Made by a program: the position numbers and the translations under genes. Of a DNA stretch of 64,000 bases, positions 11,130 through 54,668 are shown one piece after another. Position 1 is the stretch's first letter, and every line of letters begins with the position of its first letter. The stretch is from Eledone cirrhosa (lineage: Eukaryota): the NCBI GenBank assembly GCA_964016885.1, contig OZ024742.1, forward strand, positions 192,572,001 to 192,636,000, given 5' to 3'. The notes beneath the pieces were generated by a model. The model saw only the letters and a list, made by a program, of their open reading frames with translations, searched no databases and was not told the origin of the DNA.

Positions 11130-11180
11130 AGATTCCTGATGATTTCTAATGAATGAAACAGTTCTAGTCCTGTAGAATCT
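11130..11180 (+). ncRNA. Type I hammerhead ribozyme (family A), inverted copy
   Basis: Reverse complement of 2084-2134, followed 16 bp later by (TA)n. Confidence 0.85.
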
Positions 11181-23986: not shown

Positions 23987-23990
<4 letters not shown>

Positions 23991-24076
23991 CCATGTCCAT
24001 TACGAGCTGAGGATCCGCTGAGGTGAAACAATTGTTTCACCTTAGCGGATCCTCAGCTCGTAATGGACATGGTTAT
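23987..24076. repeat. 90 bp near-perfect palindrome centred on a hammerhead stem III
   Basis: Each arm reads gag-CTGAGGA-tcc gct(g/a)a ggt-GAAACAATTGT; one mismatch; axis at 24031/24032. Confidence 0.95.
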
Positions 24077-25820
24077 CCGGAACAGGAAGGACAACCGTTC
24101 GAACGCGCACGTGCAGAAACGATCACTTCACACAGGCAATATTAATTGCGTGCGAGAGGTGTAAGAGAGATAACTGCCAAAGTCCGAAAGTTTCTAGTTG
24201 ATAAGAAAATTAGGATGTTGTAATTCAATCCGGAGTTTTGTAGTTTTGTAGTAAGAGGTGTTTCCAGACATGTGGACAACATGTGAAGAATTCATTCCTT
24301 GAGTTTAGGCAATCACTATTGCGTAATCTCTTTAGAATATATATTCCTTCATCAATACATAGTCCACACGTCGGATTTCCCCTTGCGTATGGCTTGGACC
24401 TAGTGATGACTTTCCATTGAATGGAATAGTCTATACTTGAGTCCTTGAGGGACCATACGTGGCTCGCGAGTTTCGTGGATGAACGTCTGTCCGGGTACCT
24501 AAAGGTCGACTGGTGGTTCAGGAAGCGTTCCTTTAATCGGCCCTCCGCCATACCCACATAGGATTTGATCTCCTCTGGTTGATTTGGTCGGTTGGAAGTG
24601 ACCACAGCTTCATAAACTACAGCGGGTGTGTTGCATTGCTGTTGAAGGGGACAAGCATCGGGCTTACGGCAAGAGCACCATAGTGGGGTGTTGCCCTTAG
24701 GGCTGTTGGTGATGTGGGCCTTCATGTTCTTAACGCAATAGTATCGTAGTTTTACTTTGTGTCGGTTAAAGATGGAGCGGTATTTATGACCTATGGGAAA
24801 GTGTCTATCTAAGAGGGCTAGATATGTTTTGCCTACATTGGTTTTAACGTTGAGTGAGAAGGGAGGAGAGAACCAGAGAGTTTGTCTATTGTTACGCTTT
24901 CTTTTCTTATTGCTGTTGTTGTTAGTGGGAGAGTAAGTGATAGGTTGCGAGAAGTCTCTGTTAGCTAACGCCGTGTTATAGTAGTGTGCTGCTCTGTCAC
25001 AGATAGCCTTATTAGAGGAGAGGTTTGAGATTCTAGTACTGATATTATTTACGAAGTTTCTAAAAACAGTGGGAGAGTGGCATGAGTCCTTGTGAATGTA
25101 ATTGAGTTTTTCGGTAAACTTATGGAAGGGTCTGTAGGTGTGTATGCGAAGGTCTAAATTAATGTCTAAGAAATCTACGCTAGAGAGGTTGGTAGCTACT
25201 GTTATCCTAAGTCCTAACTCTTTGAAGGTAGAAGCTAAGATTTTTTAAACTTTTATGGCTCGATAAAGTCAGTCCATCGTCGCGGTATATTCCCGTGTGG
25301 CAGTCCGAGAATCTAACACGTAATATGTCTAAAATAAATAGGCCAACCAAGTCGCATACGTCAGCACTGTTAAACGATCCCATGGAGACGACGAATAGGT
25401 CTGAAGTTTTTGACTTCTTTTCCCAGGCTACTCCGTTGTTGAAGAGGAGGGTTTTCCGGCAGTGAGCGATGATTTCCCTGTCTAAACCATCGACGGTAGT
25501 GTAAGTGGTAGCAAAGTCCAACACTTCGTTTAACAGGGTCTCTGAGATCGAAGGGTAAAAATCAACAATGTCAAACTGTTTGAACTTCGCTTTTCTGGAT
25601 TTGAAGGTGTTAAATCACTTAATTACGGAGTCGCTGTTCTCCCACTGGGGCTGGTTGGACTTGGTCCTAATGGTCTTAACTATTGTTCTAAGTATGGCTT
25701 CACTGACTAGTCCCATATCTGTGCGTGCCGGGTTTAGTAGTCTACAGGTTGGGTTAGAAGTAAAGTCTACCTTGTGATCTTTCATGGTGAGGAACGCCTC
25801 CCGCTTAGCTAGAGATTGTG
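24032..25820 (-). mobile_element. 5'-truncated, decayed Naiad-like PLE (RT plus GIY-YIG)
   Basis: MGSFNSADVCDLVG, IYRDD (25207-25524); CSC..CPL..C, VVY..YVG, CGLC..LNSRNE..CPH (24225-24725). Confidence 0.92.
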
Positions 25821-25950
25821 TGTGTTAGGTACACGTCTAGTTATCCATCTCTCCAACAGGGGGCTCACACATGCGGCCCGCGAACTACTTTTCTATGAAC
25901 CGTGGTAGAACCAATATTTCAGATTCCATTATAACTAGCGAAAATAAGTC

Positions 25951-26552: not shown

Positions 26553-26869
26553 CATATATATATATAATCCGGAAGTTTCCAACAGTAATGGTTGCATTCT
26601 TTAAGGGTATGTCAATATTTATTTATAAAACTGCTCTATATTATATTTTATATGATGAAAGCACACCATAATTTAACTTGGTGTCCTTGAAATATGTATA
26701 ATGAAATAAATATGGTTTTATAAATATAGTTTCCATTTGTTAATATCGTATTTTTACTCCAAATATTTGTTGAGTGCTTTATATCAGTTATAAAAAGATT
26801 TGCTTGTTGTATCCCAACAATTTAAATAGAACTTTTACATATATATATATATATGAATAAAGTGGTCCT

Positions 26870-26934
26870 TCATCAGTGATCTTCCAACCATCATCGGTAT
26901 TTCTTCGCTTTAAAGACCATATACCTCCGGTTGG
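26870..26934 (-). ncRNA. Candidate non-circularly permuted (pseudoknotted) hammerhead ribozyme, copy 1
   Basis: ccaacc gga ggtat-A-tggtct-ttaaagcgaa-GAA-atacc gatgat ggttgg a agatca-CTGATGA; all three helices covary with 33446-33510. Confidence 0.7.
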
Positions 26935-27199
26935 TGCGAGCAACGGCTAAAGAAAGTCGTTGGGACATGTAAATAAAGGAAACAGCGAGAGTGTAAACAA
27001 ACAAAGATAGTGAAGCAACGAAAAGTGAGGAAGAGCGAGTCAAGTCCAAAAATTTCCATGAATATAAGTTCAGTGAAATCGTGAACGAGAGAGAATAAAG
27101 ACCATCAAACCTGGTTGAAATGTGAGCAAGGAAGGAATTTCGCACAGGTCTAACGGGAGGAAGAAGGGGTCTAGTCTGTGAATTCGGTAAACATAAGTT

Positions 27200-28205
27200 C
27201 TGTCAAATCGTCTACAAATCACCAGGCCTCAAACGATCACTTAGTTACATACAAAATTCTGCCTAAGAAAACTCATACAACACATACACCACACGCTACA
27301 ACAACACATACGGACTATTTCCAGCCTTGTACCACAACTCGCTGAAACCCCAGAACCTCTGTCCAGAGTCATCTCCGCCACTATAGACAGGTCATACCAT
27401 CATCGCCGAGACTCCGAGAAAATACGTCTAATGCAAACATTTCTCAAACTCAAGACGGCCAACTGTCTTAACAGCATCCCAACTGTAAACACCAACAGAG
27501 GCGAACAAGACGGTACCAACACCGAACCTAGCGGCGCCCCGACCAACAACACACCTGACGCAAAACACCTCGTCACAGACTTGACAGGATCCCTCTCCCG
27601 AGAGGAATTAGACCTCCTCAGCCTGGGTCCCAAGTTCATATTGAAACAGAGACTGGACGACAAATTATGGCTCGACATAGAAAAGAATTTCTGTCGGGCT
27701 GCCTACCAACTAAAATGGATATCGACTCTCGGCAACAACACCAGGGAATCTATCAAACCCAGATTCCCGATATACCAACTGGATCGCCCACTCTGTCCAC
27801 CGCCTCCCAACCGCGAGCTTGAAGAAAAACTCTCGAGGCTAAAACATTCCGTATTTAACATCTTACGGAAACAGAAGAAGATAGCCCCAAACCTCTCCAG
27901 GACACAACAACTCGCCCTGAAGAACCTACGGATTAGGGGACTTATATACTTACCATCCGACAAAGGTAAAGAGTTTTGCGTCATCTCTCAAGCCACATAC
28001 AACAACCTAGCCTTTGAACACCTAAGCGACAATGAATTATACACAGAGATCCCGGACATGACTGCAGCCCAGATCGAAAAACAGACCAACTCCATCTAGT
28101 TCGATATCTGTAGGAGAAGACAACTCCCAAACAAAGTTAAGCTCAACTACACCACTAGAAATAGCAGACTGCCCACTTTCTACCACCTCATCAAGACCAA
28201 CAAGA
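27200..28205 (+). pseudogene. N-terminal part of a Poseidon/Penelope-type PLE ORF
   Basis: LVTDLT..LSREELDLLSLGPKF..LPSDKGKEFCVI..HLSDNELY; ends after ..PTFYHLIKTNK. Confidence 0.8.
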
Positions 28206-28247
28206 ATAGTACTAAGACGCAAATTTATTTTCATTGTTAATTTAATA

Positions 28248-28319
<72 letters not shown>

Positions 28320-28425
28320 GTATATAGTGAAACACAGAACTTCATTATGGATTTTACTGGATTACATTGAGTTCTATCTACGGTACGCACCCTACTACCA
28401 GAGGTAGACCACACTGAAAAAGGAG

Positions 28426-28479
<54 letters not shown>

Positions 28480-28535
28480 ATGTGTGTGTGCATTATATAT
28501 ATATATTACTACATACTTACATATATATATATATA

Positions 28536-29337
28536 TAAACGGAAAAAATAAAACGAAATTTCATTTCTCACTCTTAGTACGGCTGTTACTAAGAGCCGTT
28601 AATATGCATAAGGAAAGTATATACTTTCAGACGTTCAATCATCTGGCAGGAAGGTATACGTGGCTGACGATAGCTAATAAGCTTGAAACTAGTACACCGT
28701 TCCTTTGTCAGGGTTGAAAAAATGAGCAACGATGGTTGCTAGACACTGTACGGCTTAATTCGGGATGTTTGTTTACAAACACACCGAGCATTATAACAAA
28801 TGTTCGGTGAATCCATACGTACATATATATATGTGTGCATGTATGTATATATATATACATACTACTGTTCGTCTGTATACATATATGTATGTACGTATAC
28901 ATACATATATTTAAGTAACAGCCGTACTAAGAGTGAGAAATGAAATTTCGTTTCATTCTTTCCGTTTATCGTTTTCGGTACCCCGGCCGATTAACTCACT
29001 CGATATGCAAATTAGGCTGCTCAGCCGTTAATATGCATAAGGAAAGTATATACTTTCAGACGTTCAATCATCTGGCAGGAAGGTATACGTTGCTGACGAT
29101 AGCTAATAAGCTTGAAACTAGTACAGTGTTTCTTTTTCAGGGGTGAACAAATGAGCAACGATGGTTGCTAGGCACTGTACGGCTTAATTCGGGATGTTTG
29201 TTTACAAACACACCGAGCATTATAATAAATGTTCGGTGAATCCATACGTACATATATATATGTGTGCATGTATATATATATATATACATACTACTGTACG
29301 TCTGTATACATATATGTATGTACGTATACATACTTAT
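28536..29337 (+). mobile_element. Retrozyme-like array, subfamily B (429 bp unit) with short 5' inversion
   Basis: HHRs at 28658-28700 and 29087-29129; 28536-28590 is inverted. Confidence 0.85.
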
Positions 29338-30459
29338 ATATATATATATATATATTACTACATACTTACATATATACATACATTTACGTATGTGTATAAC
29401 TATACATTTATATATTTGTATATATGCATGCATTTATATTTAAGTGTGTGTATATGTGACTGGATTTATGTTTTTTTGGTAAGGAGAGAATTTTGCCACC
29501 AGATTTTATTACCTAGGGAGATTAACTACCACAGTTTTTCAACTTCATCAAACACCAACGCAGGCCTGTGTGTGTATATATGTGTATGTATGTATGTATG
29601 TATGTATGTATGTATGTATGTATGTATGTATGTATGTATGTATGTATGTATGTATTTATGTATGTATGCATGTGTGTGTATGTTCGTATGTATGTATAAG
29701 TATACACCCACACCTTTCATCACCATTGCTTCTTTTTCTTATCATTTCTGTTGAAGTTGTTCTTGTAACTGTTGTCATAGTTGACGTTGCCCTTATTTTC
29801 ATTTTCTTTGATTTCTTTCGTTTTTCTTTTATCTCCCTAGGGAATTCGTTGACAAGCTTCCTTTATTTATTACTTCCTTTTCTTCATTCAAATGCATTCA
29901 CATTTAAAATTTCACATTATAAAATTTACCAAAGTAAAGATCATTCTAGCCCCCCTCTAACGCCCACTTGCTCCAAAACGCCCCCCCCCTGGAGCCCTGA
30001 AACGCTCCCCATTGAGAACCTTTGGATTAGACTATAGTCAAAGGAATGTAGTTTGTGGAACCTAATAAACATTGGACTGCTACCTACTGAATCTGAGGAA
30101 AAGGGGTGACCGGGATAAGAGGGGAAGGAAAAAGACAAGAGAACGAAAGAGAAACAAGGAGGAAGAGAGTGAGAGAGAGGGGGAGAGGATAGAGAGATGG
30201 AGGGAATAAGTATGTGTGTGTGTATAATGTATGTATATATATATATATATATAGTATTTACGTATCGAGAAAGAGAAAAAAAGGGGGGATAGGTGATACA
30301 TATAGTTATTTGCCAAGTAGCGTATGCCAAAGGTGCTCGATACTAGTGCCGGCAGTATTAAATATTCGAAGTGTTAATATTTAGTGGGCTAGAGAGTTAG
30401 CAGAGCGTAAGCACGTGGGAAAGTAAAAAATCGGAGAATAGACCGTTAAAACATGTTTA

Positions 30460-32397
30460 TTTAAAATATCACCTACGTACGTTTCGCCCAGTTGGGCTTC
30501 TCAAGGGCATAAATAATCACAAGTGTTTCTTATATTGCTCGGAAAGAGTTTTTGGGGTTAAATCCACATCAAGGTTCATTGCTCGCAAAAATATCTTGTT
30601 TTGATTTTGCAGCAGGTCAAGGGAGGTAACTCTGGCCGGTGTTAGGGCAGTCTTTCCCGGACAAATTTTTTTTTTTTTTTTTTTGCCGCATCCGTTTGTC
30701 TGGTATGCAAGGATTGTTTTCTGGGTGTTATTTTGCAGCGCCTGCCCGCCGGGGTGTTAAGACTTGTTGCAGGGAGATCCAGTGTACTATTTCACTCTTC
30801 ATCCTTAACCCATCTGAAGAAGGATATTTTTAAGCGATGTGTACAACTTATCGCTGTTTCAGCTCTGCTGTTGATGAGCTCGTGGGGTGCAGTTATGATG
30901 TGGTAGAGCTCCATGAGGCAAATATCGCATTTCCTCTTGAAGTTGTACGGTGCAGCCCTGCCGACAATCTCCCAGTGCGTGGAGAAGCTAATGTTTAAGT
31001 CCTTTAGTGATGTGATGTAGTCCGCGAGCGAAGTGGAGTGCCTTAGTTTTCTATTTGTGAAAGAGTGGAGATGTGTTCGAAACCTAATTTTGAACGGGCC
31101 GGAGGTGGCCCCTATATAATGTTTAACGCTATTGTGGCTAGTAATAGTGCATCTATATATAACCCTATCAGTCAAGCAGTATCCTCTAAGGGGGCAGCGT
31201 CCTCTGTCGCGGCAGTTGAAATTTCTGTCGCGGTTCCGTCTATTTCCCACGGTAAGGCTATCATTGTTGCTGCCTACGTTGTTACCTACGCTACCGCAGC
31301 TGTCGTTAGCACAATTACAACCCACAGCACGCGGGATGGTGCGATTGTTATTCCGCACGTCATGTTCTGCATGTTCCCCAGTCATTTCGCGGTCATTCTG
31401 GTTGCGTCTGCGGATGCCGTTGCCAACACTATTGGATGCTGCCAGGGAGTTGTTAAGGCCGATATAGTTATTGTCAGGTGTAGGTGCGTCTGTGTCGAGG
31501 TGCTGTGTCTTGGTGATCTTACTGTGGTTCGTTGTTCCTATGATGTCTGCTAGGTTAGGAGTAGTAGAGAAGGATATTTTTATATTGTTCCTATTAAGAA
31601 TTTTTCTATACCTATGGTTGGGAGGGAAGTTCTTCTCTAAGGCTTCGAAGAACATCCGGGGTATGTTGGAGGCCACACTCCGAGAGTAGGGGGGTGGAAC
31701 CATAGGACGTTACGGTGGCGATTACGTGTCCTTGTACTTTTGCTACGGGTGGTTCCATCTAAGTGACCGCTCTTATGTGTGTTAATGTGCAGTCGCCCGT
31801 TCGGTGCCCCTTTCACTTTATGCTCGGGTGCACTCTTTCTACCTCTTCCATGTTTATGTACACGAAGATGTTGGTTGGAAGGCGTTGGTAGTAGGCCGTC
31901 GCCTTTGTTGGTTTTGTAATAGGGGAATAGTTTGAGTAATCTACAGTGTTCACCGTCGCCGGGGACGTGGTCTTTGGTGCGGTTATCTATTCTATTATAT
32001 CCGACTTCAACGAGGTCGCCGCGTGATCGGTTATAGGTATGGCTTACTATAACGTTAGTTTTATGAGGGGGTGGTTTCTAGAGCTAGCGTTAGGGATGTA
32101 GGAAATTCCTCGGTTAAAGCCGGCGCTTATCAGGGCCCTATTGTAGTAATCAGCCGCTTGGTTGAAGATATCCTCATTGGCGGATAGCCTCGAGATTCTA
32201 TGTGAGATACTATAGACTATGGAGTTGAGAGTCTGCTTAGGGTGGTTGGAGGCATAATTAATATAAGAGAGGCACTCTCCAGGCTTATGGTATGGCTTGT
32301 ATAGGCCCGTACTCAACTCCAGGGTCACGTCCAGGAAGTTGACAACCCTGTGGTTGAGGTCCATAGTTACGGATAGGCCGTATGACTTAAAGAACCT
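30460..32397 (-). mobile_element. 5'-truncated Naiad-like PLE with long low-complexity linkers
   Basis: VNFLDVTLEL..YHKP..SNHP (32047-32397); CRDRGRCPLRGYC, VIY..YIG, CDICLMEL..LINSRAE..CTH (30792-31703). Confidence 0.92.
30468..30510 (-). ncRNA. Hammerhead, U3-A8 variant, in PLE 3' UTR
   Basis: cc-TTGAGAA-gccc aact gggc-GAA-acgtacgt-A-gg; stem I is weak. Confidence 0.6.
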
Positions 32398-32564
32398 GTG
32401 TATATATATATATATATATATACATACACAGTATATACATATATATATGTGTGTGTGTGTGGGTGGGTGGTGGTGGTGGTGGTGGGGGGGGGGGGGGGGG
32501 CGTACGTATGTATGTGTGTATGTATGTATATGTAAAGTCACCTTTTGGTCTCGAATGACCATAG

Positions 32565-32860
32565 GGTTTGCACCTAGAAAGTTTCGTTTATGATGTACAA
32601 GTCCGAGTAAGCTTGCTTGTAGAAGACCAGCAGTCGCCCATGCATGCCTCCCCTCTCCATGCGACTGATGTCGTTCAAGAGAAAGGCAATGACCGATAAA
32701 GCTTGGCACAGTAACGTCGCAAATTATTTCTACAGATGAGTGAACTTGAACAACGTGAAATAATTGGTTTTGCACAAACACACATCGCAACGCCTGGTCG
32801 GGGAATAAAATTCACAACCTCACGATTGTTAGCCCAAAGCCCTAACCACTAAGCCACGCA
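32565..32860 (-). mobile_element. tRNA-derived SINE
   Basis: gtggcttagtggttagggc head and B-box-like region on the minus strand. Confidence 0.7.
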
Positions 32861-32909
32861 CCTTTACACACACATGCGCATGCACAGTCACTCCCTCACA
32901 CATACACAA

Positions 32910-32955
<46 letters not shown>

Positions 32956-32961
32956 TATATA

Positions 32962-33617
32962 CGTATTCTCACTGCATTTTAAGTTATCTTAAATAGCAAC
33001 TACACAGCCATTTCTATTCTCCATATATTTCGTCATGTTTTTCGCTGTGACCATTGTTCTCTCCCCTTCTACCTACCTATTTCGCCACTTTCTACTCTCA
33101 CCCCTCTTTCTTCCCCCCCTTTCTACCTATCTACTCTTACCCCACTTTCTTCCTCTCCCTTTCTCCCTCTCACTTTCACCCCCTCGCCTGACCTTTTAGC
33201 AGTTCTCTTCTCACTTACAACTGCGGCGATCGGATGTGTGTCTTGTTCCTCTTGACCACTCAGTCTTGAACTTAAGTTCTCTTATCGAGTGGTCTTGGAT
33301 TTCCTACCTATATTTGCTCGCACATTGCTTGGTTTGTTGTTTTTTTTTCGCTGTTTTGCTACTGTTTTCTCTTTTCTTGCCCTTTGCTTTCCTTCCTTCC
33401 TTCCTTCCTTCGTTTTCCCAATAACTTATCCAGTTATTGACGCCTTGGGCGGTAGATATCTTGTCTTTAAAGCGTAGAAATATCCGAGACGCTCAGTAGA
33501 CAACTGATGAGGAAAACTACCCCGCGCCCCGTTCTTGCTTTCTTCGTATTCCCACTGCATTTTAAGTTACCTTAAATAGCAACTACAGAGCCATTTCTAT
33601 TGTGCATATTTTTCATT
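32962..33617 (+). mobile_element. ~583 bp partial-tandem pLTR/retrozyme-like unit between (TA)n tracts
   Basis: 32964-33018 is repeated at 33547-33601; contains the permuted HHR. Confidence 0.7.
33446..33510 (+). ncRNA. Candidate non-circularly permuted (pseudoknotted) hammerhead ribozyme, copy 2
   Basis: tgggcg gta gatat-C-ttgtct-ttaaagcgta-GAA-atatc cgaga cgctca gt agacaa-CTGATGA. Confidence 0.7.
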
Positions 33618-33929: not shown

Positions 33930-34671
33930 TATGAAGGTACCCAGAAACCCCATATCTCGGTATCCCGTGCTTCGATTTACGCGAAACTTCTTTTATTCCA
34001 TTTGTATTCCCATTTCAGGGACAACTGGCTTTCAAAGACACGAGTTGAGACAACAATGACGGCTGGAGCCCCGTAATATAGGAGTTGAGACAGCAATGAC
34101 GGCTGGACCCCCGTAGGACAGGAGTTGAGACAACAATCACGGCTGGACCCCCGTAAAACAGGAGTTGAGACAACAATGACGGCTGGAGACCCGTAAAACA
34201 GGAGTTGATACAACAATGACGGCTGGAGCCCGTAAGACAGGAGTTGAGACAACAATGACGGCTGGAGCCCTATAAACAGGAGGTTAGACAACAATGACGG
34301 CTGGAGTCCCGTAAGACGGAGTTGAGACAATAATGACGGCTGGAGCCCCGTAAGACAGGAGTTGAGACAACAATAACGGCTGGAGCCCCGTAAGACAGGA
34401 GTTGAGACAACAATGACGGCTGGAGACCCGTAAGATAGGAGTTGAGACAACAATAACGGCTGGAGAAACGTAAAACACGAGTTGAGACAACAATGACGAC
34501 TGCAGCCCCGTAAGACAGGATTTTAGACAACAATGATGGCTGGAGGCCCGTACGACAGGAGTTGAGACAGCAATGACGGCTGGCGCCCCTTATGCGCCCT
34601 TTTGGCTGTATTGTATTGCATTACATACAAGCAAACAGGCAAGCAATCACAGCCTTTTAGTAATATATAGA
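33930..34671 (-). mobile_element. Possible non-autonomous Helitron carrying the minisatellite
   Basis: Minus strand starts a|TCTATATATTACTAAAAGGCTG followed by tetranucleotide-like repeats; 3' CTRR end not identified. Confidence 0.45.
34041..34590. repeat. ~40 bp minisatellite, ~14 copies
   Basis: Unit gagttgagacaacaatgacggctggagccccgtaagacag. Confidence 0.97.
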
Positions 34672-36702: not shown

Positions 36703-38496
36703 ATGGCTGAAGCTTCTTCACCAAAATTCGAAGGAGGAAAGGGGAAGATGAACTTACAGCTTCCCCCTGCCACTGTCACAGTAGCAGAGGTCAAGAAGAA
36801 AGGTCAGCCAGAGGAAGAATTCTCTCCACCTGTTAACCGACAACTTGACGTTGCCATGGCAACAACCCAAAGAACCAGCAGCAACAGCAACAACAACAAC
36901 AATGCGACGGACGAAAACAACACCAATAACAATAACAATAACAACAACAACAAGACCAATAACGGTGACAACAACAACAATGATAACAACAACACCACCA
37001 ACGACAACAACAACACAAACAAACAAAATTTCTCCTTCGCCGAGACGACAAGGAAAACCCTCGACTATCTGCCAGTAGATATAACAAAAGCGAAGGAGCT
37101 ACTGGCGGATGCGAAAAAATATATAGTGTACGGGGAAAATGGTTCATTCACAATCCATTCCCCCCCGAAACTAAAAAGCCAGAGACTCCTAAACACGGTC
37201 ATGTTTAGGACAATCTCGAACAAAAGTAAAAAACCAGCTCAACCATCACAGAGCGAGATAGAGCTGGTTTTAAAAGACGTCATGAAGGACATCACCTTCA
37301 TTCAGAAGGATAGACTCTACGGGAGTCTATCCATTCTCATGAAGGACAGGGACACAGCAGTGAAACTGTCCATCAAACCAATCACATCCACCGCATACAC
37401 CTTCTACCCTACGTACATGGGTAGAAGAACACAAAAAATAAAAATCCGCACCATCCTGCCGATTATGGACATATGGTGGGTTTTGACAGGTTTTCTGGAC
37501 CTGGAGGATGACATGCTGGTGTCCATGGGAAAGGCATCGGGTGACGCGTTCAGTGGAACGAGCCTCGAACTTGTAGTTCAAATGAGGCCCGAAAGGATCG
37601 CCCAGATCCCTGAACGCGTCATACTGGATGATCTAACCTTCATCAACATTACCGTTGAGGGTAGACGGCCCTCGTGTTACCTCTGCGGAACCAGAGGTCA
37701 CCTGAGGGCTGTCTGTCCCCAACTTAATAAGAAAACCCCAATCCTGCCTACACCACCAACAACTGCACAACCAACACAATCACCACAACTACCACTACAA
37801 AAACAACCACCACAGCTCAAACCAAAACAAAACAATGTCCAACCCATCCCCTCCACTCAAAAAACAAAAACAATTTCCAAAACACCCGTACCGCAAACAC
37901 AACCCGAAAATATACCCCTCCCCTCCAACGCGGAAGATGACCCTAGTTCGTCGTCAGACGAGGAGGAGCACTTCCACACAATCAAAAGAAAAAAAAGAAA
38001 ACACACCTCAGACACACAAATGAAAACAACCCCTCCCCAAAACATAACACTGACACCAACACAAAAGAGCTCACAACAACAGCAAACAAAAAACACCACA
38101 CAAAAACAAAAACATGCATACACATACATAAATACAAGAAACAAAAAACTGTTAAACATTGTGTACAACAACAATCTAATAAAAACACAAGGGCCTAACT
38201 TCACCCAGGCAGGGGATTTCCCCCACCTCAAAATGATTAAGGCCCCACAGGACACCTATAAAACTTTAAAAAACAATTTTAAAGAGGACGTGGGTCCCCC
38301 CTGCGTCGGGCCCATTAACCGCGTCCTCCTAAAAAACTATCCCACCCCCTCCCCAAACACCCACACAACTCCAAGCTCCCCAACCACACAACACGCTGAT
38401 GCCCCCACACTTCCACAAACCACCACCCCACCCAACAACCCATCCCCCACCCTAATGGAAATTGTGCAGCCCGATACCCGGGACGCAGAGAGGTAA
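36703..38496 (+). CDS. LINE ORF1 protein with CCHC zinc knuckle
   Basis: 597 aa open frame; CYLCGTRGHLRAVC; basic KRKKRK; Asn-rich tract. Confidence 0.88.
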   Translation: MAEASSPKFEGGKGKMNLQLPPATVTVAEVKKKGQPEEEFSPPVNRQLDVAMATTQRTSSNSNNNNNATDENNTNNNNNNNNNKTNNGDNNNNDNNNTTNDNNNTNKQNFSFAETTRKTLDYLPVDITKAKELLADAKKYIVYGENGSFTIHSPPKLKSQRLLNTVMFRTISNKSKKPAQPSQSEIELVLKDVMKDITFIQKDRLYGSLSILMKDRDTAVKLSIKPITSTAYTFYPTYMGRRTQKIKIRTILPIMDIWWVLTGFLDLEDDMLVSMGKASGDAFSGTSLELVVQMRPERIAQIPERVILDDLTFINITVEGRRPSCYLCGTRGHLRAVCPQLNKKTPILPTPPTTAQPTQSPQLPLQKQPPQLKPKQNNVQPIPSTQKTKTISKTPVPQTQPENIPLPSNAEDDPSSSSDEEEHFHTIKRKKRKHTSDTQMKTTPPQNITLTPTQKSSQQQQTKNTTQKQKHAYTYINTRNKKLLNIVYNNNLIKTQGPNFTQAGDFPHLKMIKAPQDTYKTLKNNFKEDVGPPCVGPINRVLLKNYPTPSPNTHTTPSSPTTQHADAPTLPQTTTPPNNPSPTLMEIVQPDTRDAER

Positions 38497-38520
38497 GTGC
38501 CTTTTCTCTTCACCACCAAC

Positions 38521-41500
38521 ATGGCTATGCTAAGAGTAGGCTGTTTAAATGCGCGTGGCCTGGGCTCAACTTGGAAGCAAGCAATGCTTCTAAATGACCT
38601 CAGGTCACAACGTATAGATGTGATGGTTATTTGCGAGGCCCGGATCAGCAACGTGCGACAGCTGGCCCCCACCTTTGATGACTTTGAGATGCACGCATCT
38701 CTCTGTCAGCCCGGAGGTGGGGGTGGAGTTGTCGTTCTGCTGCAAAAACATCTGGGTCTCGCAACACAGATGGTACATTTGGACCCGGAGGGTCGACTAG
38801 TGGTTCTGGACCTTGGCAGTGGTAAAGGCGGAGCGTTTAGGTTGGTAGCCGCCTACGGCCCTTTCGGGTCAATGCGGCCGGACTTCTTCCATCGTCTGGA
38901 GACTTTTCTAGGGACGTCCCGCTCCTTGCTATTAGTGGGGGACTGGAATGGTATCCTAGATGCACGCTGGGACTACGTAGGGGCCTGCCCCGATAGAGGG
39001 GGGTGTAATAGCCTCAAAGGGTTAATCGGTCGATTTGACCTGGCCCATAGATATTGACTAGATTTTCCGACTGCGCCAACCTGGACTTGGGCAAATCGTA
39101 GCGGATCATCTAGGTCGTACCTAGATAGGTTCTTAGTTAGAATTAAGGATAAGGACTTTTTAAGTTGTCCAAAAATGCGCATGGTTGGCTATTCAGACCA
39201 CAAATTAGTGACCTGCATGGTCAACCTTGACAGAACTCATAGACAGGGCCCCGGTTGCTGGAAGCTCAACTTGTCCTTGCCGGCAAGTAGAGCCTACAGG
39301 AATCGGATTAGTACGTTAGTTAAGGAACGGTTGACTGGAGCGATCGTCAACAGCAGGTGGTGGGTATCTCTAAAGAGAGAGATTAGAGTAGTCTCGATTG
39401 AATTTAGTAAGGTTCTAGCTGCGGATAGGAATAGGAAGGAAAGGGAGCTAATAGATAGAGTAGAAGAGGCAATTAGAAGCGGCGACGTGGCCAGAGTGCT
39501 AGCGTCGAGAACGGCTTTGAGCCAGTTTTTCGACGCGAAGCACGAAGGCTGCGTTGTCCGAAGTAAAATACGTGCTCTAGGGAACGAGGGGACTAAAGCT
39601 GTTAGCTGGGCCCGCGTGACAGAGGCCAACAGTGGAACTAAATCCACCATCCGGTCTTTGCGAGACCTGGATGGACGGGCGATTCTTGAGCCTAAGCAGA
39701 TGTGTGAGGCCTTTCAAAGGCACTTTGCCCGACTGTTCGGGAGGGGCGGGGAGCCGGTTGGGAACGTGGACTTCGGTCCATACCTCGACGGCCTGCCGCG
39801 CCTCTCGGACAGGGAGGCGAAGTCCTGCGAGGAGCCGATTTCGGCCGCTGAGATAGAGGACGTGCTGAGCCAATGCGGCAAACGCAAATCCCCGGGTCTC
39901 GATGGTCTTCCTTACGAATTATATCTAGCTATGCCGGACTTGTTCCCCGATCTCCTCGAGGCGGTCTACTGCAACTGGCAACAGAACGGGAGAATTCCCT
40001 GTACTGTGACCAAGGGCGTAGTCACGCTAGTGAGGAAGGACGAGAACAAGGGGGACGAAATAAGTAACTTCAGGCCCATAACACTGCTAAATACAGAGTT
40101 ACAGATTTTGGCCAAGGTGCTAGCAAAGAGGTTGGCGCTTGTCGTGGGCAACCTGGTGGGAGATGCGCAGACATGCGCTATCCCGTCCAGGTCCATCCAT
40201 GACAACCTCCACCTCATGCGATACATCATAGAGAGGGTTGGGAACGAACCCGGCTTTGGTGGGGCTCTGATCAACTTGGATCAATCTAAGGCGTTCGATA
40301 GGGTCGACCATGGTTACCTGGATGCGGTGCTAGCGGCGGCAGGCTTCGGACCCGTTTTCAGGGGCTGGATCACTGCTATGCACAGCAGCCGCATCTGCTC
40401 TAGGGTCAAGGTGAACGGCTACCTCTCGGAGCCGTTCAAAATCGCGCGGTCCATCCGACAAGGGTGCCCTCTCTCCTCCCTTCTGTATGTGTTGACTCTC
40501 GAGCCACTACTGCGGAAGTTGGAGTTGTTGCAGGGCATCCCTTTGGAACCGGGATTGCGGAAAGCGGTGTCGGCCTACGCCGATGACGTGACAGTAATGG
40601 TGTCGACGGCCTCCGAAATCGAGGCGGTCGGCACCTTACTGGAGGAGTACGAAAAGTTCACAGGGGCTAAGCTGAACCGGGACAAGTCGATCGGTTTGCA
40701 ACTCGGCACGTGGAGGGGCAGACCGATGCCCTCCGATGGCGTCGTCGGACGCTAGACGGAGGGCCCGGTGAAGTTGCTCGGGGTCTGGTTCGGACCGGAC
40801 CTCCAGGTGGAGAAAAACTGGGCGGAGGTTACGAACAGGGTGTTTGCACTGACCCAGAAGTGGGCCAGTTGCAAACTATCCCTGAAAGGTCGGGCGGAGG
40901 TGGCGAACACCTACATAGCGTCCGTCATCTACTACCGCCTGACCGTAGTGCCCTGCCCAAGGGAAACCCTCACCAAGATGGAGCGCGCGCTCTTCCAATT
41001 CCTTTGGAAGAGGCGAGCTCCTATGGTGAGGAGATCCATCTGCTGTCAACACCCTTCGAAAGGAGGGCTGGGGATGCCGTGGCTAATGATGCGTAAACAC
41101 GCATTAAGGCTACGGCACCTCTACGTATTCCTCACCGGACAACCGGTGTGGGCCTCGTTTGTGAGACGAACCTTTCCCAGACTCGTCTCACTCACCGAGC
41201 TGCAATCCTGGGTCAAGCAAAGACCGAGAAAACTGGGCGCCTGGCACACTGAGTGTGCCCAGGCGCTCACCGCCCTCTGGCAGGCGGATCCGGTTATCAG
41301 TGGAGACTCCACCGCAACATTCTATAGAGGGCTGGTACGCAGCAGGTGCGACGACGCCCTCGGAGAAGCCCTAGACATGGAGGAGGACGAACTGGCCGGC
41401 CTGTTCGGTAGGACATTCAGCCCGGGACCTATGGACAACTTCCAGAAGTCCCTGGCCTGGCAGTGCTACCGAGGAGCTTTACCCGTTCGAGAAAGGCTCT

Positions 41501-41959
41501 ACAGACACGGGCGCCCGGGTAGGGACCCCGCCAAAAAGATCTGTCCCAGATGCGTGTGCGACGAGGAAACCGTTGCACACGCATTGGTACACTGCTCGGG
41601 CGTAGGCCGATCTGTGGGGCTATGTCGAACAACTGCTGTCAAGGGTGGGACCGATCCGGTTGACCACCGAGTCTATTGTAATGATCAAGCCGCCTCCCCC
41701 CTTCAAAGATGAAGCAGAGGCGGTGTTTCTGTGCGTAATAGCCATGGCGAAAGAGGTTGTATGGTGGACGCGTCTGAAAGGACTGAGGTCAGGCACCTTT
41801 CTCTCTGGCCAACAACTGGTCCGTTTCTTCCGATATCATTTCGGAAGAAGGATCAGGATGGAGAGAGAGGTGCTGCACCCCAGTCGTTTTTATGAAAGGT
41901 GGGTGAAAGTGGCGAGAATGGCCCGTGTGAATGGGCCTTCTCTTTACATAAGCCTGTAG
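38521..41959 (+). pseudogene. LINE ORF2 (APE endonuclease, RT, C-terminal Zn motif), disabled
   Basis: LNARGL, VGDWN, SYLDR, SDHK; SPGLDG, FRPITLLN, KAFD, RQGCPLS, YADD; CPRC..ET..H..HC; stops at 39055 and 40753, frameshift at ~41605. Confidence 0.95.
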
Positions 41960-52350: not shown

Positions 52351-54668
52351 TTAAGGGTTCGATTTGCACTTGTAGTGCGAAAACTTTTCTTTGAGTCTAT
52401 GGTTATAATAAATTGATCTTTCGATTTTATTGTTGAGTAACTTTTTCTTCGAACTCAAAATGTGGAACAGCTCAAGGTCATCGAGAGCTTCTCATACCAC
52501 TGCGATATGGGGGCGCGTTCGATAATTTTTTCCACTTCAGGGTGTATTGATGTTTACTTTTCCTCAGTTGCCAGGTCTTGTTTGCAAGGGTAGTTACATA
52601 ACGATACTGGGAATATTTTATTGCGTAACGGTGTGTATAACAACGGGCTTTAAATGTATTCCCAGTCGCTCCAATGTAATACCCTTTCTGGTTGTCTGAT
52701 TCCACTGTGCATTGGTAAACCAGGTTAGACTGCATGCATTCATTATGTAATGGACAGGTTTCGGGTAGGTGGCAGTTACAATTCTTGTCATGGGCAACTT
52801 TGGCATTATTGGTGGGCTGCGATGCCTGTACAAGTGTGTTACGTTTTGTTTGCTTATTAGTGGGTGGTTGTGTATTAGATATTCTGTTGTGTTCAATGGT
52901 GATTGTATTGTTATTGTTATAAATTTGTGTTCTGGTGTTGTTATGTATCTTTTTAGCGTTAAGCATCTTAATGTGTGCCTCTATATTTGGTGCCGTGGAG
53001 TAAGATAGTTTAATAGATTTAGTGTTAAGGATTTTGCTGTATCTATGTGAATCTGGAAAGTGCTTATTTATTATTCTAAAGAAGGTAGAGGGTAGGTTAG
53101 TACTAATAGAGGTGTTACATATGGGGTTATAGCAAATATATTTTCTACTGCGTGACTTGTTTGATTTCGATGTTGTATTTCTATTTACCGTATAATTTGT
53201 AGTTCTATGCGTAAATGCGTGTGTGCGAGTGTTTCTGGAGTTTGTGTTATGCGTGTTCGTGTGCGCTTTGCGGAGGCTTTCATCTATATATTCTACTATA
53301 TCTAAGTGGCCTGCCTTGTCTAGTGCGGTATTGTAGTATTCTGCATGTTCCTCGAAGATTCGTCGGTTAGACGAGAGGCGGGAGATCCTAAGGGATATGC
53401 TGCGTGGAATGGTTTTAATTATGGATAGTGGGTGGTTTGAGTTACAGTTGATGTATGCTAAGTTTTCATTAATCTTGTGAAAAGGTCTTATAAGTCCCGT
53501 ATTTAGGTTAAGCGTCGCGTCTAGAAAGTTAACTGTTTTAGTGCTATACTCATACGTTATGCTAAGGCCTAGTTTCCCGAGAGTCTTTCTAATATTCTTA
53601 CGGAATCTTTCTATACTCTGGTTATTTAGATTCTTAACAAGGAGAAGAGCGTCGTCTCTGTAGATTCCACCGTGAAGGTCGCTAAACTCACTCTGTAAAC
53701 TATGGACTACGTAAATACCTACTAAATCTGTGACTTGAGCCGAGTCGTTAACCCCCATCGTGATGTCAAAGTTATTTAATCTATCTTTACGTTCCCAATA
53801 GGCATTTTCAAATTTAATTATTGTTTTCCTAGCAGCTAATATGATTTTTATCTCGTCGTCTTTTAGGTCAGAATTGGCTTTGGCGAATGTTAAGGCTTTA
53901 TCCAAGGTGTTGGGGGATATAGAGGAGTAATAGTCGTTAATGACAAATTGTATAAATTTAGATACTTTTTTGTTAGCTATATTGTTAAACCACTTAATTT
54001 ATTCGGTAGCGTTACCCCATAGTTTAATCACTAGTTTATTCTTCATTTGTGCTATCACTCTGTCTAATATATGTTTACTAATTTTCCCGATATCCGATTT
54101 GGACGGGCATATAAGTCTAATTGTGGGGTTATAATCAAAATTTACCCTGTAGTCCTTGAGATTTAAGTGGCTCCGTTCTGTCGTCTATTCCTAGGTGATT
54201 GACTATATTGTGTGCCTCGTTGTAGATGTTTATCAGTGCTGCCACATTAGTTTTTTTCTCTTTCCTATGTAATTATTTCCGTATGAAGCTATTGTATGTA
54301 TTAACATCCATCGTATACACATTTGATGTTTTGTCCGCTTTGACAATAATTCCATTGGTAGTTCGCAGCTTTTTTAGGAATGTATTTATGTCATTCTGGA
54401 GTTTACTCTTCCTCTGCTTTTTGAATTTGATATTCATAATCATCTTCAATAAGTCCTGTTCAAAGGCATCCAGTTGAGGGTTGGTAGGTGGGTTCTTACA
54501 CGATTTGAAGCCGTATTTTTCCTTGTTGTATTCCACGGTACGACCATTACGTCCTTTGTCGAAATGGAAAGTTTTTCATCTAACTCGGCGTATAAAGTCG
54601 TTTGTTTGCTCTATCATCCCGAGGGTATAATCCTTTCTCAAAGGTATAGGAATGTTCTTTAGGGACAT
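52351..54668 (-). pseudogene. PLE RT / GIY-YIG ORF, disabled
   Basis: MSLKNIPIP, KADKTSNVY, MGVNDSAQ, IYRDD, CNC..CPL..C, LVY..YIG; several stops and frameshifts. Confidence 0.93.

Follow-up and report, generated by a model that had tools for sequence, protein, structure and literature searches.

Predicted hammerhead ribozymes in a further permutation, with a displaced stem II, in repeats and LINEs of the Eledone cirrhosa genome

Hammerhead ribozymes of types I-III share the circular block order C-G-S and are matched by Rfam. In another form, type SGC, the conserved blocks UH, GAAA and CUGANGA follow one another in the order S-G-C (Eckert et al., 2023; PMC10085705). As described there, type-SGC ribozymes have a short linker between stems I and II and an extra helix tying these two stems together, come from metatranscriptomes only and cleave at 0.007-0.19 per min. 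The same scheme of six permutations assumes that CUGAnGA and the adjacent stem II strand (block C) are inseparable; its descriptor requires stem II directly after CUGAUGA(U)G, and the SGC-2 oligonucleotides show such a stem II (PMC10085705). Here we describe two related motifs, copy A on the minus strand and copy B on the plus strand, in a 64,000-nt stretch of the nuclear genome of Eledone cirrhosa (hereafter the window; assembly GCA_964016885.1, contig OZ024742.1, positions 192,572,001 to 192,636,000). Judged from sequence comparison, both are probably active hammerhead ribozymes in a further permutation, in which block C is split and the 5′ strand of stem II lies upstream of stem III; we put the probability of this reading, activity and topology included, at roughly 0.75. 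Since block C is split, the published SGC descriptor cannot match them.

The first half of the ribozyme would consist, from 5′ to 3′, of a P0 strand, the hairpin P1, the stem II 5′ strand, a P2 strand and a strand carrying stem III, UH and stem I. The second half would continue with a linker of 3-5 nt, the stem II 3′ strand, the GAAA/stem III strand, the remaining strands of P2 and stem I, CUGANGA and the second P0 strand. Topologically, the prediction amounts to type SGC whose two ends have been connected, P2 to stem III, with a new opening made between A9 and stem II. This opening would be clamped by P0 and P1 as a four-way junction, and in one lineage, I, a three-way junction would lie behind a single 10.1-11.1 pair.

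The original prediction, made from the window alone, had placed two 65-nt motifs at 26870-26934 (-) and 33446-33510 (+). The motifs are there, with stem III, stem I and the outer helix as predicted and with position H17 being C at 33460 and A at 26920. The UH, GAAA, CUGANGA order in both copies, the pseudoknotted stem I and, as predictions, the cuts after 33460 and 26920 are likewise supported. Their extent was underestimated, however, as the fold reaches 33412-33517 (+) and 26865-26966 (-).

Copy B, the entire predicted ribozyme with its S-G-C core and split stem II, occupies 33412-33517 of the plus strand. Its P0 5′ strand, GUUUUCC (33412-33418), has its partner at 33511-33517 and is present in the minimum-free-energy (MFE) fold. 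Next come the 7-bp hairpin P1 (33419-33439), which shows compensatory changes between subfamilies A1 and A2/B, and the displaced stem II 5′ strand ACGC (33440-33443), which covaries with its partner GCGU (33472-33475). The P2 5′ strand (33445-33451; partner 33490-33496) belongs to a helix that is the counterpart of the stem I-II interaction helix of type SGC. Block S (33455-33466) comprises the stem III 5′ strand (33455-33459), C17 (33460), 3′ of which the cut is predicted, and the stem I 5′ strand (33461-33466). The linker UUAAA, the stem II 3′ strand, an unpaired A (33476), G12 (33477), GAAA and the stem III 3′ strand (33480-33484) lie within 33467-33484. The 3′ part (33498-33517) holds the stem I 3′ strand (33498-33503), CUGAUGA (33504-33510) and the P0 3′ strand (33511-33517).

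Copy A (26865-26966, minus strand) has the same layout. The P0 5′ strand GUCC (26966-26963; partner GGAC, 26868-26865) and hairpin P1 (26962-26941) together span 26941-26966, and the displaced stem II 5′ strand UCGC (26939-26936; partner GCGA, 26908-26905) and the P2 5′ strand CCAACC (26934-26929; partner 26889-26884) span 26929-26939. Block S (26914-26925) contains the stem III 5′ strand (26925-26921), A17 (26920), after which the cut is predicted, and the stem I 5′ strand (26919-26914). In the 3′ part (26870-26903) are G12 (26903) and the 3′ strands of stem III (26900-26896) and stem I (26882-26877), followed by CUGAUGA (26876-26870). Between them, the two window copies pair GAUAU/AUAUC and GGUAU/AUACC in stem III, and UUGUCU/AGACAA and UGGUCU/AGAUCA in stem I. 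They are members of two subfamilies of a high-copy repeat.

In neither window copy does a strand after CUGAUGA pair with the bases before GAAA, as the strands after A9 and before G12 do in the stem II of a conventional hammerhead; outside lineages A and I, a junction replaces that helix. The partner of the strand that follows CUGAUGA is found about 45 nt upstream of stem III, giving P0 as GUCC/GGAC in copy A and GUUUUCC/GGAAAAC in copy B. When subfamilies A and B are compared, hairpin P1 sits directly after the upstream P0 segment, and the GCG(A/U) of the linker is complementary to an upstream (U/A)CGC. Stem II had originally been taken as absent, with a conserved linker in its place. This view is abandoned here, because the GCG(U/A) segment varies between lineages and covaries with the upstream strand: it would be the stem II 3′ strand. 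A stem II is thus predicted to exist, with its 5′ strand displaced upstream of stem III. Across lineages the 3′ strand reads GCGAU, GCGUU, GCGCC, GACCC, GGGGCC or UGCAC. Only subfamilies A and B had been compared when the split stem II and P0 were proposed; other lineages were sought afterwards, and found, with linker-plus-core patterns containing neither of these helices.

The repeat family is large. In the 3.0-Gb genome, the linker-plus-core pattern of the original prediction gave 1,269 matches (reversed control, 0), a looser pattern 10,442 (control, 106) and a B-type pattern 757. Within the window, the 13-nt linker pattern has exactly two perfect matches; allowing 2 mismatches gives 8 where 4.5 are expected, which leaves the exact pair as the only informative one. 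About ten lineages share the same helices in different sequences. For instance, lineage C has a GGCGC/GCGCC stem II, a P0 of up to 7 bp and a P1 of 8-9 bp. In lineage H (26 aligned segments), CUGAAGA is followed at once by a 12-bp P0, P1 has 8 bp and the site is GUA; its stem II, GGGUC/GACCC, stands directly before GAAA, making a junction with no unpaired bases. Lineage Q (30 old copies) combines a GGCCCC/GGGGCC stem II with a 3-nt linker and a GUC site. P1 is missing from lineage I (35 segments), which shows one G10.1-C11.1 pair, a GUGCA/UGCAC stem II and a 6-bp P0. In the old lineage I (loci L390-L419), the bases of the stem II 3′ strand are far more variable between copies than their neighbours. 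Other pattern families, such as those ending in TCTCTGAAGA or starting with AAATTAGCG or AAAGGGGCG, were dropped, their stems not being formed. Both stem I and stem III were formed in 0 of the 120 chance pattern matches listed from metagenomes and in 0 of the 120 listed from viral contigs; no homologue outside the genome was obtained among these matches, which does not imply absence.

The core elements CUGANGA, GAAA and UH are present throughout; the first two were partly imposed by the patterns, UH was not. U16.1-H17 is kept although it was in no search pattern, and U-A occurs at 15.1-16.1 in 20 of 22 aligned rows. The consensus cut triplets are AUA, AUC, GUA and GUC. All four bases occur at position 7, a position that takes any of the four in hammerheads generally. 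In lineages A and I only a single 10.1-11.1 pair is possible, and most A copies can form A10.1-U11.1. Both window copies have the minority base A before GAAA, where U is commonest among the first 100 looser-pattern matches.

Statistical support was drawn from 22 real copies, hand-picked from 37 records to span the lineages and aligned by sequence only, in which the 22 pairs of stems II, P2, III and I were counted. Paired cells amounted to 83.1%, versus 63.3% in shuffles (equalled in 0 of 500) and 33-41% with the partners slid by 1-3 columns. Two-sided change was seen in 116 cells versus 43, and affected 4 of 5 pairs in stem II, 5 of 6 in P2, 4 of 5 in stem III and all 6 in stem I. Stems I and III were paired in 89-90% of cells. 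P0 and P1 are not alignable across lineages and were judged by their pairings within each lineage and by a two-helix test, which asks for at least 4 bp in both stem II and P0 among copies with intact stems I and III (copies examined: 49 A, 28 B, 7 C, 16 H and 16 I). This test was passed by 36 of 38 copies in A, 8 of 17 in B, 3 of 3 in C and 8 of 10 in H, compared with 10-21% when the upstream sequence was shuffled. Unconstrained folding, in which pseudoknots are impossible, recovers P0, P1, P2 and stem III in copy A, H and C.

Several observations weigh against this fold. The count of 19 of 22 pairs with two-sided change was also reached by 36 of 500 shuffles, and kinship among sequences can beat shuffles without any structure. 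Stem II is the weakest helix, at 67% of cells paired, because the rows of H, M, P and window copy B sit one column off register and several rows have decayed. Lineage I passes the two-helix test in 1 of 8 copies. For A, the descriptor admits alternative registers, and the P1 3′ strand offers a competing pairing. Unconstrained folding fails to return the helices for copy B and A3, the MFE fold of copy B favours an alternative pairing of the stem I strand, and the folding z-scores of A-type copies are not significant. The pair at position 11.1 is missing in both window copies. For most lineages, moreover, CUGANGA and GAAA were imposed by the search patterns.

We infer self-cleavage from hammerhead chemistry. 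By analogy with solved hammerheads (PMC11300833, as described there), G12 and the G8 2′-OH would catalyse cleavage after H17. The displaced stem II would stack under the A9-G12 pair, and the linker and P2 would hold stems I and II together in place of the loop I-loop II contact, as in type SGC. Cutting of read-through transcripts from tandem copies would free unit-length RNAs, which would be circularised and reverse-transcribed for more than one round to give partial tandems, as proposed for retrozymes. The ribozyme would in this manner serve both the non-coding, retrozyme-like repeats, among them the two window copies, and two lineages of long interspersed elements (LINEs) with a restriction-endonuclease-like domain. 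In two genome copies, 2-3 nt are inserted precisely at the predicted cut, which religation might produce. In A2 copies (loci L001, L007, L012, L026 and L028), a sequence that stops at H17 is connected to an internal site of the unit; this shared junction could go back to a single inherited event and is left out of the support.

The ends of integrated copies bear on a different explanation, in which the fold is right and cleavage is slow, conditional or lost, the element serving reverse transcriptase as a 3′ recognition or protection element. Insertion 5′ ends of A copies show no enrichment at the predicted cut; judged by eye, true breaks made up 27 of 69 matches at the cut site versus 16 in the first 100 of 167 at a control two bases away. 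Copies of H end about 35 nt past A9 and not at the predicted cut, in a search whose query favoured whole ribozymes. In integrated copies the junction is retained uncut, and their ends lie downstream of it. The core could also lose stability where a four-way junction takes over from the 10.1-11.1 pair, and the published SGC ribozymes are slow at the rates reported (PMC10085705). Retrozymes with active hammerheads, however, are described as integrating with uncut junctions as well (PMC7229834). Furthermore, U16.1-H17, the A15.1-U16.1 pair and the H17-G12-C3 spacing were held within one or two bases while the helices changed entirely, and this constancy points to catalysis rather than binding. 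A role without efficient cleavage is accordingly regarded as unlikely, and self-cleavage by the rewired hammerhead remains the preferred reading.

Other explanations would change the fold itself. The strand after CUGAAGA in lineage H (U-GUGUC) could pair at 4 of 5 positions with GACCC in the published SGC register with a bulged U, which may mark the origin of the new form and would be expected of an ordinary type-SGC ribozyme whose stem II forms after CUGANGA, P0 and P1 being an off-state or incidental. However, that H pairing has a mismatch at its second pair and competes with the 12-bp P0; the classical register offers at most one junction-proximal pair in the consensus of A and I and 0-2 in B and C, and every lineage has the interaction-helix strand upstream rather than downstream. 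An ordinary type SGC is therefore very improbable. Smaller still is the chance that stem II is missing altogether and the fixed linker UUAAAGCG takes its place: both window copies and lineages A, B and C share this linker, but H, I, Q and others have different sequences there, and these covary with the upstream strand. Just as little credence is given to the idea that the helices function during insertion, either in single-stranded DNA or on the opposite strand, and that the hammerhead words are incidental. Both strands do fold about equally well, yet all three core blocks lie on the sense strand of the LINEs, and many variant pairs are G-U on that strand.

With the rewired hammerhead as the preferred reading, comparison with known forms limits how far it is new. 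Its UH, GAAA, CUGANGA order is that published for type SGC, and what remains outside the published SGC descriptor is the split block C. The S-G-C order, short linker, interaction helix (P2) and full core of type SGC are all found here, unlike the intact block C with a stem II strand directly after CUGAnGA; known type-SGC hosts, as reported, include no genomes of known organisms, whereas the present motif sits in retroelements of an animal nuclear genome (PMC10085705). Types I-III differ in block order, and no Rfam match was obtained at copy B, at four other loci or among 150 of 470 window rows, in keeping with the earlier claim that standard descriptors miss the motif. A comparison with permuted, pseudoknot and pistol forms had also been proposed: the block order is shared with type SGC, but the defining features of the latter two are absent. 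The pseudoknot hammerhead and pistol described by Zhan et al. (2024; PMC11300833) likewise replace helix II by a pseudoknot helix and have an A-rich linker and a compact knot. Compared by text, however, the pseudoknot hammerhead closes, with G10.1-C11.1, a loop that pairs with the helix IV loop, a feature not found here; the strands after A9 and before G12 here enter two different helices, in S-G-C order, and pistol as described lacks the CUGANGA loop (PMC11300833). The motif would work like a hammerhead and is a member neither of types I-III nor of type SGC as defined. Within the literature searched, including Forgia 2023 and with Repbase reports and subscription papers outside its scope, the text available describes no hammerhead with a split block C and none in Hero-type LINEs.

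The carriers of most copies are non-coding tandem units of 520-800 nt, with periods of 520-706 nt in the A family. Copies A and B both lie within non-coding, pyrimidine-rich units. The copy A carrier (26853-27211, minus strand) is a 5′-truncated unit of a roughly 630-nt non-coding repeat with a TA run at its end, and abuts an unrelated truncated Penelope-like open reading frame (ORF) fragment at 27212. That of copy B (32962-33614, plus strand) consists of about 1.1 units of a non-coding 583-nt tandem repeat flanked by TA microsatellites, 32962-33031 recurring at 33545-33614. Related copies occur as partial tandems, in arrays that reach nine units and as inverted pairs of truncated copies; most end in TA runs. 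Animal retrozymes without long terminal repeats (non-LTR) are likewise described as dispersed, high-copy, non-coding tandem units with one hammerhead each, from monomers to multimers (Cervera and de la Pena, 2020, PMC7229834; Li et al., 2026, 10.64898/2026.07.22.740005). Non-coding tandem units with one ribozyme each are found here too; the hammerheads of those retrozymes are of type I and their RNAs 170-400 nt, unlike the rewired form and the 520-800-nt units here. Hammerheads of Penelope-like elements, as described by Craig et al. (2021; PMC8557442), resemble the present ones in their position near the 3′ end, partial tandems, inverted truncated copies and TA targets, and differ in their type I order. 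The layout of these carriers is that of animal retrozymes and Penelope-like elements (PMC7229834, PMC8557442). The latter source also lists eight Penelope 'half core' cases with a second core half 35-50 nt away on either side, some of which may be related.

Lineage H lies in a coding element, in the 3′ untranslated region (UTR) of a 3.6-kb single-ORF LINE and on its sense strand, and lineage Q likewise forms the 3′ UTR of a restriction-endonuclease LINE, in sense orientation; the H P0 begins 6 nt past the stop codon. The H host matches Pfam RVT_1 (E 5e-14) and, weakly, zf-RVT, and its C-terminus, without a Pfam hit, is one we take to be an endonuclease from its motifs, beside its homology to fish reverse transcriptase (RT) polyproteins. 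This C-terminus, present at 22 of 25 H loci, shares 75-84% identity with proteins from several teleosts over its last 213 residues, and 61% with Tetraodon Q7T1J8. The host is presumably a member of the Hero clade and Q7T1J8 presumably Zebulon. Ribozymes of R2-like elements, by comparison, are hepatitis delta virus-like and stand at the 5′ end. The C-terminal identity of the H LINE (L420:4600-8200) to marine and freshwater teleosts suggests horizontal transfer. Hero-clade LINEs as described (PMC4640811, PMC9004415) have a single ORF with an N-terminal zinc finger, an RT and an endonuclease-like C-terminus, which the 3.6-kb H host resembles, as it does in its microsatellite targets. Lineage Q follows a second C-terminus of the same kind, 28-45% identical, with a hit in 8 of 30 loci. 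A search of the PDB with the H endonuclease region was empty, and protein-led LINE scans returned one weak, unrelated viral locus and nothing in prokaryote genomes.

Among the 303 genome records scanned, no autonomous parent of A, B, C or I was found; outside H, the LINE-like hits were L315 (lineage Q), a weak one close to a B copy and three weak matches to RT. At L091:2324-2578, a weak 28% hit to the endonuclease region precedes a same-strand B-type ribozyme by about 800 nt, by parentage or by chance. Four dispersed H loci share an identical, seamless joint of 3′ end to 5′ end, and in one of them a 611-bp 3′ piece precedes a full copy. The shared joint fits reverse transcription round a circle or along a concatemer, and is no proof of cleavage.

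These associations admit a wider, tentative conjecture, to which we give somewhat less than even odds: the undescribed permutation might be a general 3′ processing ribozyme of Hero-type LINEs that yields circular or concatemeric RNA in fish and other animals, and the repeats might be retrozymes derived from such LINEs. If so, movement as circular or concatemeric RNA would explain the head-to-tail tandems of Hero-type LINEs, and the fold would occur widely among fish and other animals, escaping all current descriptors. On the preferred reading, a non-circularly permuted hammerhead, earlier known from metatranscriptomes and metagenomes, would now be placed in an animal genome at more than 10,000 copies and linked, through the 3′ UTR, to a restriction-endonuclease LINE that has close relatives in fish. 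The assumption that CUGANGA and its stem II strand are inseparable would break, and more natural ribozymes would therefore be hidden from existing searches. The origin of the tandem structure of these elements becomes testable with a short transcript, and the P0/P1 arms would offer a natural engineering insertion point beside the active site.

The original prediction had suggested a Penelope-like context. Penelope-like ORFs carrying DKT and CxCX5C motifs, none with a Pfam hit, occur at 124-1836, 24225-25821, 30792-32400 and 52478-54527, all on the minus strand, fitting the Hydra clade as described in PMC8557442. They were rejected as carriers: they have conventional hammerhead-like 3′ motifs of their own, and copy A only abuts a truncated ORF. 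At 23990-24075 lies an inverted pair of 3′ ends of the Penelope-like ORF at 25821-24228 (-), with a conventional CUGAGGA...GAAAC motif. The fragment at 27212-28099 (+) is N-terminal and belongs to a canonical Penelope-like family (loci L032-L050) whose 3′ UTR carries a hammerhead-like motif with an extra A after CUGAAGA. Another repeat shows conventional type I-order hammerhead-like motifs at 11136 (+) and 23808 (+), with CUGAUGA, a short stem II, GAAAC, a 6-bp stem I and a 4-bp stem III. Contigs of two runs from two organisms cover the stretch, with no bearing on expression. Further along are a 40-bp minisatellite of about 14 copies (34035-34589) and an L1/Tx1-like element (36703-41712, plus strand) whose ORF1, endonuclease and RT frames contain stops.

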